DNA of 64,000 nucleotides from a virus (Duplodnaviria > Caudoviricetes), in IMG/VR virus record IMGVR_UViG_3300020577_003313. One strand, 5' to 3'. Below the pieces are notes generated by a model, which searched no databases, had not been told where the DNA came from, and saw only the letters and a list, made by a program, of their open reading frames with translations. Both the position numbers and the translations under genes were made by a program. Position 1 is the stretch's first letter, and each line of letters starts with the position of its first letter. Shown here in pieces: positions 28,117 through 33,420 of the stretch.

Positions 28117-28924
28117 ATGCAAGTTTTGTTTCTAGTCTAAAGTTCTTTCTGTTTAACAGATTAAGAAGTCTAGTTGAAGATTCTACGTCAGAGTAACCAG
28201 AGGTTCCTCTGCATAGAATTGATCCCTTAAGGGATAAGGCTGATTCTGGGCCGAAAGTCTTTCCAGAAAATAATTGACATATCCACTGACTATTACCAGC
28301 ATAGGTAATCTTTTCTGCGGCAGTTACAATCATTTCTTCACCTAGAGTTAATAGCATCGAGTGGATATTAATCGGCTCAGCATGCTTATTTCTAGTGTGG
28401 ATAGTTATGTCTACTATGTCTTGATCTGTGTACATAACTACATCGCCTTCAATCAATATTTTGTTTATCCAAGTTCTATATTTGAAGATCTTGGCGATCT
28501 TGTTCTCTTCATCGACATAGGACCAAGTCCCATTAGGATCGGCCAGTGCATCTATCTTGCTCTTAAATACTATCTCTGAGCAGTGCCCTGCTATGATTGT
28601 ATTATTACTAGCCAAGCTGTATTCAGCAGAGAACGATGGAGTAATTGCCATAAGATTATCAACTACCCATGGAGAATATTTAAAGTCTGGAAGACTTAAT
28701 GTGGGGTCTGCTACATACTCTAGAGATGTTGACGTGAAGGAACGCTTTACAATAGCCTTCACATATAGCACATTATTTATTATGGCTGCCTGGTATACAA
28801 AACCAGTTTGAAGGTCTCTAGCTGTTCCTACACTATCAGGCACAGGAGTTGTTAATGCTGTCTTAGTCCAGTAGGAAGCGTCTACTACTTCTGGCAGACT
28901 GGTAATAGTTATTCTGGTAGTCAT
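28115..28924 (-). CDS. hypothetical protein
   Basis: Probable start at 28924 (ATGA overlap); the stop codon overlaps the first two bases of the tRNA. Confidence 0.6.
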   Translation of the reverse strand: MTTRITITSLPEVVDASYWTKTALTTPVPDSVGTARDLQTGFVYQAAIINNVLYVKAIVKRSFTSTSLEYVADPTLSLPDFKYSPWVVDNLMAITPSFSAEYSLASNNTIIAGHCSEIVFKSKIDALADPNGTWSYVDEENKIAKIFKYRTWINKILIEGDVVMYTDQDIVDITIHTRNKHAEPINIHSMLLTLGEEMIVTAAEKITYAGNSQWICQLFSGKTFGPESALSLKGSILCRGTSGYSDVESSTRLLNLLNRKNFRLETKLA

Positions 28925-29385
28925 ACTGTTATTTTGTTCATCTTCTCTAGCCAAGCTAGAGGGTAATCTGTACAGACCCCGCGAGTGTGTAAAGTTATGG
29001 CGGTATTGGGAGGTCCTAGCTCTACTACAACTCCATTATCCATGTATATTCCTGGATAAGACCATATCCAGCCATGAGAAGTTAAAGTCATTTCGTCATT
29101 TTTATGGTAGAACCAATTATATTTGCGCTGACTATCATACAGCCAATTGGCTGCATTAAGATCCTTTGCGTGGATAACTAAAAAATTAGCAAATGATTCT
29201 AAGAACGACTCGTCAATTTTATACTCTGGGAAGTCATGGCCTAACAATAGTTCATTGTCGACGAGCCATAAATCTACTTCACACATAATTTTATGGTCGC
29301 CCATAACGTGTTGGAGATGGGCAGGATTGTTTTCTTTACTTAAGTCTTTGCCCTTAAGGTTGCCTCTGTGCGAAATAATGATCAT
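28921..29385 (-). CDS. GDPD/PI-PLC-like phosphodiesterase
   Basis: IISHRGN...ENNP...EVDLW...LGHD...HAK...GVCTDYP. Confidence 0.75.
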   Translation of the reverse strand: MIIISHRGNLKGKDLSKENNPAHLQHVMGDHKIMCEVDLWLVDNELLLGHDFPEYKIDESFLESFANFLVIHAKDLNAANWLYDSQRKYNWFYHKNDEMTLTSHGWIWSYPGIYMDNGVVVELGPPNTAITLHTRGVCTDYPLAWLEKMNKITV

Positions 29386-29975
29386 AGATATTGTCTAAGT
29401 AAATCTAAGTTTAGATAGTTAGAATTTAGTACTCTAACTACGGTTGCACCAGTTCTCAATCCAGCTTCTGCGCCTCTATCAGAGTCCTCGACTATGATAG
29501 AATCTTTAGGAGACATTCTATAAGCTGTCATAACTTTCATGTAACCTTCTGGGTTTGGCTTTGGTAACCACACGTCTTCGTTAGTGACTAGCATGTCTAA
29601 GTAACTATTAAGTCCAGATTGCTTGAGCATTATCTTAGCAGTAAGTCTAATGCTATTAGTCACACATGCTAATATGTGTCCATCTCTACATAATCTATCT
29701 AGTAGAAAGCATAGCCTATCATCTCGTTTACAATTCTTGTAGATAAGACTTAAAGTACTGTGCTGCTTATTTTCTTCAATCTGAGCTCTATATTCTTCTG
29801 GGATATTAAGAATATCTAGCTTAGTTTTAGTCGGTAAAGCTTTAAGATTAGCATCGTGTTCTTCCGCGCTCATAATCCTTACAGGTCTTATAGCTTCTAA
29901 GAAAGCATCTCTATGCCAATCACAGGCGTCTACTAGGACGCCATCTAGGTCAAACATTATTAGTTTTTTAACCAT
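29382..29975 (-). CDS. HAD phosphatase (beta-PGM/CbbY-like)
   Basis: FDLDGVLVD, VTNS, KPNPE, VEDS. Confidence 0.85.
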   Translation of the reverse strand: MVKKLIMFDLDGVLVDACDWHRDAFLEAIRPVRIMSAEEHDANLKALPTKTKLDILNIPEEYRAQIEENKQHSTLSLIYKNCKRDDRLCFLLDRLCRDGHILACVTNSIRLTAKIMLKQSGLNSYLDMLVTNEDVWLPKPNPEGYMKVMTAYRMSPKDSIIVEDSDRGAEAGLRTGATVVRVLNSNYLNLDLLRQYL

Positions 29976-30612
29976 AAGCTAAAGACTTATTGACTACAAA
30001 TAGATCGCCTTCTCCATATGGGTGAAAGTTAGGAGTGCTAAACTCCTTAACGAGGAAGTCATTTTCTTTTAAGAATTCTTCTACCACACTCTTAACTGGA
30101 TGTCCCTCATAGTAAGGTACCATCGTTGCTTCTGTATGTATAAAGTCTACAGTACTTAGGTAATCACCCATCCCGATCATTACTTCTATTTCAAATCCTT
30201 GGGCGTCGGCCCAAAGTATGTCTACTTTGGTAATTCCTAGTTCTTTAAGAATAGAATCTAGTCGCCTGACCGGTACTGGATACTCATTATAGTCTTGGAC
30301 TATAGCAGAGTAGTGTGGTTTAAGTAAACTTCCAGCTCCGTGGTTTTGATTTTGTGGAGGAGAGTGAAGTATAGCTGTTCCTTCACTACTACCTAGAGCA
30401 ACTGGGAAGAACTTTATATTAGTGGTTAACTTAGATTCTATTTCAGCTTTTTGATGTGGGTTAGGTTCAAATGCTAATATCAGAGCATCAGGATATACTG
30501 ATCTGAATTCCAAGCTTTGTCCTAGATCTCTTGATCCAACATCTAATATAACTTTGGGACTGTAAGAAGGTTTTTCCTTCTTAATAAAGTCAAGAAACTT
30601 GTCTATTAGCAT
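29968..30612 (-). CDS. FkbM-family SAM methyltransferase
   Basis: LDVGS, AFEPNP, VRRLD, DILWADAQGFE; probable start 30612. Confidence 0.85.
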   Translation of the reverse strand: MLIDKFLDFIKKEKPSYSPKVILDVGSRDLGQSLEFRSVYPDALILAFEPNPHQKAEIESKLTTNIKFFPVALGSSEGTAILHSPPQNQNHGAGSLLKPHYSAIVQDYNEYPVPVRRLDSILKELGITKVDILWADAQGFEIEVMIGMGDYLSTVDFIHTEATMVPYYEGHPVKSVVEEFLKENDFLVKEFSTPNFHPYGEGDLFVVNKSLAYG

Positions 30613-31775: not shown

Positions 31776-31777
31776 AG

Positions 31778-32104
31778 TTAATCAATGTTAAGATACTTGT
31801 CTGTTGGTATAGATGGCGTCTTTATGACTAAAATTTTACAGTCAGTTTGAAACTCAGCTTTTGTTATCTCTCCAGGTTCAATAACAAATATCTCATTCTT
31901 CTTTATAGGTATACCATTTATTGTCATCTTACCTTTTAAGAGGACATTGTATTCTGTAGCAATTTTATGGTGATGCCTTGGCCAGTCTTCGCCTTTCTTA
32001 TGCTTTAAGACTCCTACCTCAAAGTGCTTAGTCCTTAAAATATTAGGCTCAAAGTCACCGATTATCCACCCGCGATGGAAGTCTTTAAGGTTCGCGTGCT
32101 TCAT
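31778..32104 (-). CDS. cupin-fold protein
   Basis: GWIIGDFEP...HHHKIATEYNVLLKGKM...IEPGE. Confidence 0.8.
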   Translation of the reverse strand: MKHANLKDFHRGWIIGDFEPNILRTKHFEVGVLKHKKGEDWPRHHHKIATEYNVLLKGKMTINGIPIKKNEIFVIEPGEITKAEFQTDCKILVIKTPSIPTDKYLNID

Positions 32105-32825
32105 TAAGATATTTTCTTAAGTCTTCTGGAGTTCCAACAGGCCAGAACGAAGATACGGGTATATGGTAAGAACCCACTATCTGTTTCCGTTTGATCATAT
32201 AATTATACGACTTAGATATGTAGTACTCTCCGTTAGGAGCGGTATCTTTAGCCATAAACATATCTTCAGCACTTCTACAGAAGTACTTAGCTTTTCTCCA
32301 GAAATGGATACCGGTTAAAGCTGTATTGCTTATCTTAACTTTCTCGGTTAGCTTTACAGCATGACCATGGTTATCCAATTTTATGAAGCTGTGCGCTTCA
32401 TTTCCACCTTCAAATGTATTTACTATACCATCAAACCAATCACAGGTATTGCAGAAGGTATGGAAGGACATACCTGACCACTTCATTATCTGGTCGCAAT
32501 TAGCAGTAAATAATTGTTGTTCTTCATCAATGTTGAAGTGCATGATAGCGTTATACACGGTAGTAGCAGGACCGCTAGTTACTGTGTCGAAAGTATAGAT
32601 GTTCGGATTCTTGTACTCCGACTCAAGTTCTTTTATCAAGTCAAGATAGCCGTCAAACTTTCTAATAGCGAAGTAGATATTGTCTACCGGGAACTCTAAA
32701 GAGTTCACTGATGCAATAAGCATCGGCGCGCCATCTATATTTATCAAAGGCTTTATCTTGCTAAAACCTTGGTTAACAAATCTAGATCCCAGTCCTCCGA
32801 CTGGGATGATTAAGTTGCTAGTCAT
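32085..32825 (-). CDS. sugar-phosphate nucleotidyltransferase (NTP_transferase)
   Basis: IPVGGLGSRF...KPLI, TSGPATT, NCDQ, TEK, NGEYYIS, GTPEDL. Confidence 0.88.
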   Translation of the reverse strand: MTSNLIIPVGGLGSRFVNQGFSKIKPLINIDGAPMLIASVNSLEFPVDNIYFAIRKFDGYLDLIKELESEYKNPNIYTFDTVTSGPATTVYNAIMHFNIDEEQQLFTANCDQIMKWSGMSFHTFCNTCDWFDGIVNTFEGGNEAHSFIKLDNHGHAVKLTEKVKISNTALTGIHFWRKAKYFCRSAEDMFMAKDTAPNGEYYISKSYNYMIKRKQIVGSYHIPVSSFWPVGTPEDLRKYLNEAREP

Positions 32826-33420
32826 TAGTAGGTGGATAGATGTAAAGCGGATCCGTCTCCGCGTACGAGACTAGCTCTAACTTCCACTTAAGGCAATGAC
32901 AGGCTATACCTAGACGTTTCATAAGAGGTAGTAAGTAGTCTACCTTACTTACGTTATGCTTAGCATATCTTTCCATCAGTTGCCTTTCTGTAGGCTTAGC
33001 CTCAGTAGAGGTATCCTCGTCCATGACTTTAGTCATTAAATTGACTGGCAGCCCTATCGCGTAGTCTATGTAGTAGCCTCCGTCCCAGTTATGATAAGCT
33101 AGTACAGAAAGCTTAGTAGGATCTATGTTGTCCATTAGTAAGTCAGGATTACTAATGATCATGTCCGCGCGGATCTTAAGTAAGTAATCTATTCCCTTGT
33201 CCTCGGCAAGCTGGCACCCAGCCAGCGCACCTTCGAACTGTAAGTTGGAATTACCATAGCCTGGATTGTTTGGCTTTTGAGACCAGATACTCATGACAGG
33301 ATTAGGACCAAGAGTACCATTCCATAGTGAATATAAAACTGGTGTCTTGTAGTTCTGGTAGTGACTATGGAGCTGATCTAAATATTGATCAGTACCTTGT
33401 ACTAAGATTGCTTTTCTCAC
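32818..33420 (-). CDS. WavE-like LPS/capsule modification transferase
   Basis: ILVQG...YSLW...NSNLQ...G...LKIRAD matches the WavE pattern. Confidence 0.6.
   Translation of the reverse strand: MRKAILVQGTDQYLDQLHSHYQNYKTPVLYSLWNGTLGPNPVMSIWSQKPNNPGYGNSNLQFEGALAGCQLAEDKGIDYLLKIRADMIISNPDLLMDNIDPTKLSVLAYHNWDGGYYIDYAIGLPVNLMTKVMDEDTSTEAKPTERQLMERYAKHNVSKVDYLLPLMKRLGIACHCLKWKLELVSYAETDPLYIYPPTND

Follow-up and report, generated by a model that had tools for sequence, protein, structure and literature searches.

A RuBisCO-like protein of phages and cells that recurs beside a nucleotidyltransferase in a candidate pathway to an activated sugar

The window analyzed here, a stretch of 64,000 nucleotides, belongs to a phage contig of 176.6 kb, and its content is that of a phage (virion-protein PHROGs, a primase-helicase, and RNR). 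On the minus strand, positions 28921-33420 hold seven coupled genes, each neighboring pair either overlapping by 4-22 nt or standing 2 nt apart. All seven genes that the earlier note had placed here are present, and its family labels were supported. From high to low coordinates, they encode a predicted WavE-like GT-A glycosyltransferase (32818-33420, 200 aa), a sugar-phosphate nucleotidyltransferase (NT; 32085-32825, 246 aa), a small metal-binding cupin (31778-32104, 108 aa), a RuBisCO-like protein (RLP; 30606-31775, 389 aa), an FkbM-family methyltransferase (29968-30627, 219 aa), a HAD-IA enzyme of the beta-phosphoglucomutase/sugar-phosphatase type (29382-29975, 197 aa), and a mini GDPD-like phosphodiesterase (28921-29385, 154 aa). 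The cassette adjoins a run of glycosyltransferase-like and methyltransferase genes on the same strand (33417-40682) whose Pfam and profile matches are mostly weak. The sole clear GT2 lies at 39903-40682 (E 7e-13), a borderline GT-D at 36984-37697 (E 8.7e-6), and a Methyltransf_24 gene at 34085-34723 (E 5e-4); the remaining matches, to GT1, GNT-I, and GT2, are weak. The window had also been said to lack phosphoribulokinase (PRK), RuBisCO small subunit, and methionine-salvage genes. This holds for the part that the Pfam scan covered, as none of these was matched among the genes at 23.2-42.3 kb.

What kind of RuBisCO-family protein does this phage encode? The RLP matches PF00016 (E 2.7e-33) and scores far under the cut-offs of all NCBIfam RuBisCO and RLP models. 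It keeps K175, K177, K201, D203, E204, R/K295, H327, S379, G381, and G403/404, and the metal/carbamate site and both phosphate sites are retained. E60, T65, W66, N123, H294, H298, and K334 are replaced, and the replacement of K334, E60, N123, and H294 extends across the whole clade. With these four residues lost, the RLP is predicted to be non-carboxylating. In our tree, the NT-linked RLPs form a clade of their own (SH-aLRT 99), apart from form III, MtnW-like, and OiaX-like proteins. A working CO2-fixing RuBisCO, for example a form III enzyme in nucleotide salvage, could be argued from the conserved metal and phosphate sites and from the NCBIfam scores, of which form III gives the highest (146 bits). 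We give this reading practically no credence, since the score is far under the cut-off of 497, the four residues are replaced clade-wide, and no ribose-1,5-bisphosphate isomerase, AMP phosphorylase, or PRK lies nearby. Moreover, the tree places genuine form III proteins on a separate branch, isomerase-RuBisCO fusions among them.

The constant partner of the RLP is the NT. The two genes are neighbors in 42 of the 43 loci that make up our non-redundant set with enough flank (the wider set has 74 loci); the GDPD-like gene is found in 30 of the 43 and the cupin in 25. This recurrence is far above chance. The earlier note had made its proposal depend on RLP homologues co-occurring with the cassette genes, and in this neighborhood analysis they do. 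The order NT-cupin-RLP-(methyltransferase)-GDPD-like is conserved in 23 IMG/VR loci whose RLPs share just 48-58% identity, and conserved synteny is also seen in approximately 45 cellular loci. Additionally, the genes are joined in natural fusions of four kinds. RLP and NT are fused in proteins of 667-671 aa (P0124, a 90%-identity cluster with 128 members from several sources), the GDPD-like enzyme and RLP in a 546-aa protein on four contigs (P0174/P0286), and NT and cupin in a 352-aa protein on a giant-virus contig. HAD and NT are fused, with the HAD N-terminal, in two loci by Pfam (L014 and L021), and a third (L031) has a candidate fusion, a long ORF of similar size that matches the HAD.

Glycan islands gather unrelated genes, and the neighbors could in principle do no more than share a variable island. 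Alternatively, the RLP could be catabolic like the RLPs of apiose/tetronate pathways, as every characterized RLP acts in salvage or catabolism. We regard either account as very improbable. Chance cannot account for fusion proteins and near-invariant adjacency in viruses, bacteria, and archaea alike, and the genes that typify catabolic operons (transporters, kinases, dehydrogenases) do not recur in the loci. The OiaX-type RLPs, from D-apiose catabolism, offer a likeness in that they convert a phosphorylated keto sugar acid via an enediolate, but they serve catabolism and lack an NT partner, and the RLP scores 98 bits against the OiaX model (NCBIfam NF042437; cut-off 700).

The NT matches phrog_3980 (E 2e-49) and reaches Pfam only below threshold, with a weak match to the MobA/LicC-type NTP_transf_3. 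Its family profile finds PDB 4evw, an NDP-sugar pyrophosphorylase (E 6e-33), followed by ManC/RmlA/GlmU-type enzymes, and it carries a GxGSRF...KP motif. On these profiles, it is closest to sugar-1-phosphate nucleotidyltransferases. The cupin matches phrog_24762 (E 1.7e-33) and has an invariant HxH...E metal triad (H44, H46, E51). Among solved structures, it comes nearest to quercetinase and to small cupin_2 proteins, of which one bears the name mannose-6-phosphate isomerase, and it reaches no Pfam isomerase model. The HxH..E site is as compatible with a dioxygenase as with an isomerase.

The remaining products were placed by motifs, profiles, and structural models. The GDPD-like protein, which has no Pfam match, shows the invariant motifs HRGN..EN..ExD..LGHD, a profile match to the GDPD 7e0v (E 5.6e-4), and an AlphaFold model (pLDDT 93) whose top Foldseek matches are nearly all GDPD barrels (TM 0.54-0.62). 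We know of no precedent for such an enzyme in a nucleotide-sugar route, a point against placing the cassette in one. Its gene accompanies the NT even in phages without the RLP. The HAD enzyme matches HAD_2 (E 3.8e-23), has DxDG and the other HAD motifs intact, and finds phosphoglycolate phosphatase and beta-PGM in the PDB. The earlier note had counted it in the core of the cassette; present in only about 4 of the 74 loci, it is an accessory part. The methyltransferase (PF05050, E 3.9e-18; TIGR01444), also accessory, has homologues in 17 of the 74 loci, and Methyltransf_24 or TylF genes take its position in others; the activated sugar proposed below would probably be O-methylated. The WavE-like protein has no Pfam match of its own and aligns with the WavE family in hhalign (probability 98.8%, E 1e-16). 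Its AlphaFold model (pLDDT 79) has 216 Foldseek matches at E<=1e-3, the top ones listed all being GT-A transferases. The model has a GT-A fold, as do NDP-sugar-dependent transferases. Of the 23 viral loci, 7 have a homologue at this place (five distinct, counting near-identical pairs once), and this transferase is the probable user of the cassette's product.

'Form IV-like' RLPs have been described on large phage contigs, where they grouped with Beckwithbacteria and were seen as mainly a phage feature, with their function left open (Jaffe et al. 2018, bioRxiv 10.1101/386292). The clade studied here also comprises divergent RLPs on large phage contigs and includes a Beckwithbacteria locus (L039), and it is very probably the same clade. 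Here, its carriers extend beyond phages and CPR bacteria to giant viruses, SAR11, Legionella, Verrucomicrobia, Spirochaetota, and DPANN archaea, and both synteny and fusions link the RLP to NT, cupin, and GDPD-like genes. We found no paper linking this clade to nucleotide-sugar genes. The same partner genes occur in the cellular loci of SAR11, Legionella, Verrucomicrobia, Turneriella, CPR, and DPANN. The clade's loci lie mostly within glycan gene islands. A bona fide WavE gene (E 1e-52) adjoins the module in one locus (L038) and WavE is also found in another (L081), while an SDR epimerase/dehydratase family occurs in 31 and GT2 in 15 of the 74 loci. Other nearby genes encode GT7/10/11, UDP-glucose dehydrogenase, and TylF/FkbM/Methyltransf_24 methyltransferases. 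Only some cellular genomes carry the clade (5 of 24 in the genus Legionella and 2 of 151 in the Pelagibacter family), the patchiness expected for surface-glycan genes. Counting against a glycan role, one subclade in SAR11 sits amid the housekeeping genes thyX, mrp, and hflKC, with no glycosyltransferase nearby.

What could such a gene set make? We think it fairly probable that the cassette encodes a short pathway for making an unusual nucleotide-activated sugar, which the adjoining glycosyltransferases then place on a glycan. We infer the order of steps, the substrate, the roles of the accessory enzymes, and the glycan target. The RLP, with its carbamyl-lysine/Mg2+ site, would enolize a phosphorylated keto-sugar and re-protonate it to an epimer or a shifted carbonyl, with no fixation of CO2; to our knowledge, this chemistry is common to all characterized RLPs. 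The cupin would act next as a metal-dependent aldose-ketose isomerase or epimerase, like the cupin domain of bifunctional PMI-GMP enzymes. Positioning the phosphate as the NT requires would fall to the GDPD-like phosphodiesterase and to the HAD or a host enzyme, and the NT would join the sugar phosphate to an NTP. Against this route, neither a kinase nor a recognized phosphomutase was found in the window or in most loci. Finally, the adjoining glycosyltransferases, the WavE-like enzyme first, would transfer the sugar, probably to the virion or the infected-cell surface in phages and to LPS or capsule in bacteria. An anabolic glycan role, as first proposed from this window, is well supported as a prediction for the RLP, NT, cupin, GDPD-like, and WavE-like components by the viral and cellular synteny, the four kinds of fusion, the WavE, GT2, SDR, and methyltransferase neighbors, and the modeled GT-A fold. 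The HAD enters it only as an accessory. In the earlier note's version, the substrate may be a ketose phosphate, with an analogy to xylulose bisphosphate and CbbY-type HADs, and the product may be an NDP-ketose or a branched sugar.

The product might instead be a CDP/NDP-activated keto-pentose or polyol phosphate rather than a glycosyl donor, by routes modeled on CDP-xylulose/CDP-arabinitol or CDP-ribitol. Transfer would attach it as a phosphodiester substituent, and the GDPD-like enzyme would edit or recycle such phosphodiesters. Pneumococcal AbpA cytidylylates xylulose 5-phosphate, the NT's weak Pfam match is of the MobA/LicC type, and the GDPD-like enzyme has the full phosphodiesterase motif set. 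The transferase closest to the Legionella module belongs to the LicD phosphotransferase family rather than to the glycosyltransferases (in Legionella nautarum it adjoins the RLP-NT pair; E 1e-42), which points to sugar- or polyol-phosphate transfer. We nevertheless consider this product unlikely: the NT profile is far nearer to 4evw, ManC, and RmlA than to IspD/LicC, the recurring transferase neighbors are GT-A/WavE and GT2, and LicD adjoins the module in just one of the few neighborhoods scanned with Pfam.

For an activated sugar donor, a close parallel in parts is the GDP-mannose route (bifunctional PMI-GMP plus phosphomannomutase), in which a cupin isomerase, a phosphate-moving enzyme, and a sugar-1-phosphate NT follow one another. 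ManC-type enzymes are among the NT's PDB matches, and PMI-GMP is itself an NT domain fused to a cupin isomerase, the architecture of the giant-virus NT+cupin fusion. However, the cassette adds the RLP and the GDPD-like enzyme, and its cupin is far smaller. In the NDP-heptose route (GmhA-HddA-GmhB-HddC), a ketose phosphate is isomerized, a HAD (GmhB) trims a bisphosphate, and an NT (HddC) makes the donor. There, the NT acts immediately after the HAD, in keeping with the HAD+NT fusions. Unlike that route, the cassette has no SIS isomerase or anomeric kinase, and the RLP stands in the isomerase position.

The 'LPS' clusters of cultured cyanomyoviruses (S-SM2, Bellamy, S-PRM1, B23) carry GDPD-like and NT homologues (tandem NT-NT or HAD-NT), sometimes with a cupin, within glycosyltransferase clusters. 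None of the 50,697 GenBank phage records, these included, has the RLP. In S-SM2 and Bellamy, the equivalent stretch holds a class II aldolase/adducin-family gene. This is the family of MtnB, and its presence in place of the RLP is an argument for a methionine-salvage-like, acireductone-type route, in which an RLP enolase, a HAD phosphatase, and a cupin dioxygenase would act on a methylthio- or 5-deoxy-pentulose phosphate from MTA/5'-deoxyadenosine, either for salvage or to make a methylthio/deoxy sugar. The MtnW-MtnX-MtnD steps likewise use enzymes of the RLP, HAD, and cupin families, which counts against the activated-sugar route, and the cupin profile's top PDB match, quercetinase, is a dioxygenase. 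HAD and cupin enzymes are pathway partners of both MtnW/YkrW (the 2,3-diketo-5-methylthiopentyl-1-phosphate enolase) and the Rhodospirillum rubrum RLP isomerase, and our RLP shares their fold and the K175/K201/D203/E204 enolization machinery. However, it lies on a separate branch, far under the cut-offs of the MtnW-like models (82-115 bits; cut-offs 409-514), and it is partnered by an NT, in a setting of glycan synthesis rather than sulfur salvage. The R. rubrum RLP's cupin partner is absent from the PDB matches of the cupin profile. We judge the salvage-like route improbable, as the HAD is rare, no MtnA/B/K-type genes were found among the genes scanned, and neither the RLP-NT fusion nor the glycan context has a place in a salvage pathway. 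If the route to a nucleotide-activated sugar is correct, biosynthesis of activated sugars for surface glycans would be a job not yet known for the RuBisCO family.

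What do the seven genes of the cassette encode? Seven successive open reading frames (ORFs) occupy the minus strand at 28921-33420, with junctions that are either overlaps of 4-22 nt or a gap of 2 nt. Their setting is a large phage genome: the window has a ribonucleotide reductase and a primase-helicase as well as virion-protein PHROGs, and the contig bearing the RuBisCO-like protein (RLP) is 176.6 kb long. All of the gene labels given in the earlier note were borne out, because Pfam and NCBIfam identify three of the genes, and profiles (among them a PHROG), motifs and predicted models identify the other four. 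A Pfam scan of window ORFs covering 23-42 kb, together with NCBIfam, gave firm assignments to an HAD-IA enzyme (29382-29975), an FkbM methyltransferase (29968-30627) and the RLP itself, a RuBisCO large-chain homologue (30606-31775), all on the minus strand. The HAD shows only general HAD-IA, beta-PGM and phosphoglycolate-phosphatase similarity, and no CbbY model is among its matches.

The remaining four genes, also on the minus strand, were identified by other means. The nucleotidyltransferase (NT; 32085-32825) matches phrog_3980 (E 2e-49), and its family profile has as best PDB match 4evw, an NDP-sugar pyrophosphorylase (E 6e-33), followed by ManC, RmlA and GlmU. It carries the GxG(S/T)R...K signature of sugar-phosphate nucleotidyltransferases (PF00483 / PF12804), and the window protein taken alone falls just below the Pfam threshold (22.9 versus 27 bits). 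In the 108-aa cupin (31778-32104) the HxH...E metal triad is invariant, and the relatives are small cupin_2 proteins. Its identification as an R. rubrum-type methylsulfurylase is unsupported, the R. rubrum protein being absent from the PDB matches of the cupin profile. The GDPD-like protein (28921-29385) has 154 aa, compared with about 240 aa for a full GDPD barrel, and scores below the PF03009 gathering threshold, with no Pfam match. However, its HRGN, EN, ExD and LGHD catalytic and metal motifs are invariant in 17 homologues, it aligns with the N-terminus of the GDPD 7e0v, and its predicted model (pLDDT 93) matches almost exclusively GDPD barrels, with TM scores that reach 0.54-0.62 by query and fall to 0.39-0.43 by target. 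Finally, the 200-aa WavE-like protein (32818-33420) is under the Pfam threshold for WavE (PF07507). It aligns with the WavE family at an hhalign probability of 98.8%, in an alignment whose members include a WavE at E 1e-52, and its predicted model has a GT-A glycosyltransferase fold whose Foldseek matches are GT-A enzymes. Upstream of the cassette lie one clear GT2 gene, one borderline GT-D gene and several weak GT-like genes; in or next to this glycosyltransferase run, 38476-39084 and 41254-42288 (minus strand) have no significant family match. Directly downstream of the cassette, ARAGORN predicts a tRNA at 28042-28116 (minus strand) with a four-base anticodon 'ttca' and no identity called, abutted by a 279-aa ORF (28115-28954) without a family match.

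We read the active site of the RLP from an alignment with P0186, which scores above the NCBIfam cut-off as a form III RuBisCO. The clade to which the RLP belongs keeps K175, K177, D198, F199, K201, D203, E204, R/K295, H327, S379, G381 and G403/404, and its KPK and KEDE motifs, which hold K175, the carbamylated-lysine position K201 and the metal ligands D203/E204, are invariant, as is a GQSVGNP loop. E60 is replaced by G, T65 by N, W66 by N, N123 by Q, T173 by G, H294 by Q, H298 by D or I, K334 by Y or G, and G380 by C. Carboxylation by RuBisCO needs K334 of loop 6 together with E60, N123 and H294. Since the E60/K334 pair and H294 are lost, carboxylation is ruled out, and the RLP is, judged by its residues, not a carboxylase. 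The pattern fits a predicted enolising enzyme acting on a substrate that is anionic at both ends, because the metal and carbamate site and the residues of both phosphate sites are kept.

The RLP is a member of no curated family. It scores far below the RuBisCO models (TIGR03326 for form III, 146 versus a cut-off of 497 bits; PRK04208, 134 versus 438) and below the OiaX model (98 versus 700 bits). A RuBisCO-superfamily phylogeny, proposed in the earlier note as a check, placed it in a separate clade with an SH-aLRT of 99, apart from form III, the OiaX-like branch, the MtnW-like branch and unclassified RLPs. This tree comprised 115 sequences (50%-identity representatives plus locus sequences), with outgroups labelled by NCBIfam, most of which remained unclassified. 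To our knowledge, all RLPs with an assigned function are salvage or catabolic enzymes, with roles in methionine salvage, the MTA-isoprenoid shunt or apiose breakdown. We regard a methionine-salvage-like route as very unlikely for the window RLP: the protein reaches 115 and 82 bits against the MtnW/YkrW cut-offs of 409 and 514 and lies outside the MtnW branch.

The RLP gene itself is already known: Jaffe et al. (bioRxiv 10.1101/386292) described some 90 'IV-like' RLPs from phages, with unclear function, together with one Beckwithbacteria group. The window clade answers to this description, being carried on phage contigs (23 IMG/VR loci), containing a Beckwithbacteria locus (L039) and standing apart from classical form IV; the match is made by description and by L039, rather than with the sequences of that paper.

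How widely is the cassette conserved? The 23 IMG/VR loci encode RLPs 48-58% identical to that of the window. Most keep the order NT-cupin-RLP-(methyltransferase)-GDPD-like, and the others have the same genes close together; where FkbM is absent, a Methyltransf_24 or WavE/DUF7796-like gene occupies its position. Scanning one genome per prokaryotic species with an RLP profile yielded 46 further loci, whereas a scan with patterns from a single RLP protein yielded none. These cellular loci are found in SAR11, including a complete Pelagibacter chromosome, in Legionella nautarum, L. drozanskii and L. maceachernii, in Azospirillum, Turneriella and one Francisellaceae genome, in Verrucomicrobia, Planctomycetes and Elusimicrobia, in CPR bacteria including Beckwithbacteria and Saccharibacteria, and in many DPANN archaea. 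An NCLDV major capsid gene shares a 452-kb contig with one homologue, and a eukaryote-type topoisomerase I and TFIIS are present on the contig of another. Representative homologues number 902 in all. The stretch itself occurs, whole or in large parts (shares of at least 0.2), in public runs labelled activated sludge, wastewater and river, and no RNA run is among the public runs listed for it.

Gene neighbourhoods, proposed in the earlier note as a check, confirmed that the cassette recurs. After collapsing RLPs of >90% identity and requiring 2.5 kb of flank on both sides, an NT adjoined the RLP in 42 of 43 loci, a GDPD-like gene in 30 and a cupin in 25. For the 16 viral loci these counts were 16, 15 and 15, and for the 27 cellular loci 26, 15 and 10. 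HAD is rare (about 4/74 loci), and FkbM occurs in 17/74.

Gene fusions join the same partners. P0124 represents an RLP fused to an NT of the cassette's NT family, and clustering at 90% groups it into a set of 128 proteins of 667-671 aa in samples from Tara, JGI, ENA and MGnify; one such fusion is followed at its locus by genes for a cupin, a further NT and WavE. P0174/P0286 represent a GDPD-like domain fused to an RLP (546 aa, four contigs). An NT-cupin fusion occurs at a giant-virus locus, and Pfam-confirmed HAD-NT fusions occur at two loci (L014 and L021); at a third locus, L031, a long ORF of about the same size matches HAD at the level of the whole ORF. Read from these fusions, the parts of the cassette are predicted to belong to one pathway. 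In another fusion, P0160, the N-terminal 320 residues are without any match. Other RuBisCO-family fusions were also seen. P0159 and P0170 (726-742 aa) join an eIF-2B-family domain to a full form III-type RuBisCO; eIF-2B is the family of ribose-1,5-bisphosphate isomerase, so two steps of the archaeal AMP pathway would be on one polypeptide. P0243 and P0238 both lie outside the NT-linked clade: one, of 583 aa, joins a TIR domain to a RuBisCO-family protein, and the other, of 1265 aa, combines a RuBisCO-family protein with an APH-type kinase domain.

With gene identities, residue pattern, linkage and context observed, we consider it moderately probable that the RLP cassette is an anabolic route to a nucleotide-activated sugar for glycans. 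Neighbours of the RLP include SDR family epimerases/dehydratases (31/74 loci), GT2 (15 loci) and the WavE family (7 loci, with a bona fide WavE at E 1e-52 in L038). Sugar aminotransferase, UDP-GlcNAc 2-epimerase, UDP-glucose dehydrogenase, GT7, GT10, GT11 and TylF/FkbM/Methyltransf_24 methyltransferases also recur. This set of neighbours is the make-up of surface-glycan islands. RLP carriage is patchy (5/24 genomes of the genus Legionella; 2/151 sampled genomes of the Pelagibacter family), which is also in keeping with such islands. However, two settings count against a glycan-island context: in L. nautarum the transferase adjoining the module is a LicD-family phosphotransferase, and in a SAR11 subclade GDPD-like-NT-RLP-NT is set among thyX, mrp and hflKC, and transferases are absent from the vicinity. 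In the chief rival, a keto-pentose or polyol phosphate is activated with CDP and passed on in phosphodiester form; with the WavE and GT2 neighbours on one side and the LicD-family gene on the other, we judge it unlikely.

Further genes were noted beside individual RLP loci. Next to an RLP-NT fusion (L081:2707-5381) are a PEP mutase, a split phosphonopyruvate decarboxylase, a cytidylyltransferase and an Fe-ADH, and this island therefore seems to make a phosphonate decoration too. Just downstream of the RLP module on a giant-virus contig (L024:12037-16457), a TPP enzyme, a dehydroquinate-synthase-like gene and an SDR may form a second sugar or cyclitol pathway. Near the module of a phage-like contig (L026:12298-16686) are DHBP synthase, an enzyme that uses ribulose 5-phosphate, and transaldolase, which may hint at a supply from pentose phosphates.

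A related cassette without an RLP is present in cultured cyanophages. Among 50,697 GenBank phages there was no DNA match and no RLP match, but the GDPD-like gene is found in 17 GenBank phage records, which represent about 10 distinct cultured Synechococcus myoviruses, and it lies inside glycosyltransferase clusters in all four loci inspected (S-SM2, Bellamy, S-PRM1 and B23). S-SM2 and Bellamy lack the RLP; both have the GDPD-like gene together with a class II aldolase/adducin-family gene and a tandem NT-NT of the cassette's NT family. A cupin homologue is clear in Bellamy, whereas S-SM2 has only a weak cupin-profile match. By annotation, the GDPD-like gene adjoins a 457-aa nucleotidyltransferase in B23 and an HAD in S-PRM1. 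Enediolate formation on ketose phosphates is likewise a property of class II aldolase-type enzymes. Judged by gene content, NT, HAD and GDPD-like look like a general activation unit, and sugar remodelling would fall to an exchangeable unit, either RLP plus cupin or a class II aldolase-type enzyme.

How might a nucleotide-activated sugar be made? The following scheme, covering substrate, sequence of reactions and glycan target, is inferred. By analogy with all characterised RLPs, the RLP would take a proton from beside the carbonyl of a phosphorylated keto-sugar and give it back to yield an epimer or a shifted carbonyl. The cupin would convert this remodelled ketose phosphate to an aldose phosphate, which the HAD, a host mutase or the GDPD-like enzyme would convert to an anomeric phosphate. 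The NT would then form an NDP-sugar, to be O-methylated and transferred by the WavE-like GT-A enzyme. The NT plus cupin architecture of the giant virus presumably matches bifunctional PMI-GMP enzymes, and we take the HAD plus NT fusion to match GmhB followed by HddC; these likenesses suggest the proposed order. A more elaborate version, which we think improbable as a whole, makes the RLP the key enzyme of a new route to rare-sugar donors (ketofuranoses or rare pentofuranoses) that includes the mini-GDPD and a second NT. Here the RLP would act on a ketose 1-phosphate or bisphosphate, either epimerising it or moving its carbonyl, with the phosphate staying on. The mini-GDPD would shift the phosphate to the anomeric position via a cyclic phosphodiester derived from a first NDP adduct, and the second NT would make the true donor, which would explain the two NT genes or tandem NT-NT of many loci.

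What is new is the wide cellular and giant-virus range of the RLP and its fixed partnership with nucleotide-sugar enzymes, a partnership that implies an anabolic role. In the full-text literature, mostly outside subscription journals, we found no paper that ties an RLP to nucleotidyltransferases or nucleotide sugars, and nothing relevant on RLPs with a cytidylyltransferase, Legionella or SAR11. The anabolic hypothesis is directly testable because cultured carriers exist (L. nautarum, L. drozanskii, L. maceachernii and a Pelagibacter strain with a complete genome), and the minimal RLP-NT pair is only two genes. If true, this would be the first anabolic role in the RuBisCO superfamily, and the 'phage RuBisCO' genes, a puzzle since 2018, would gain a function. 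One sugar on the surfaces of phages, giant viruses, SAR11 and Legionella alike would also be indicated.
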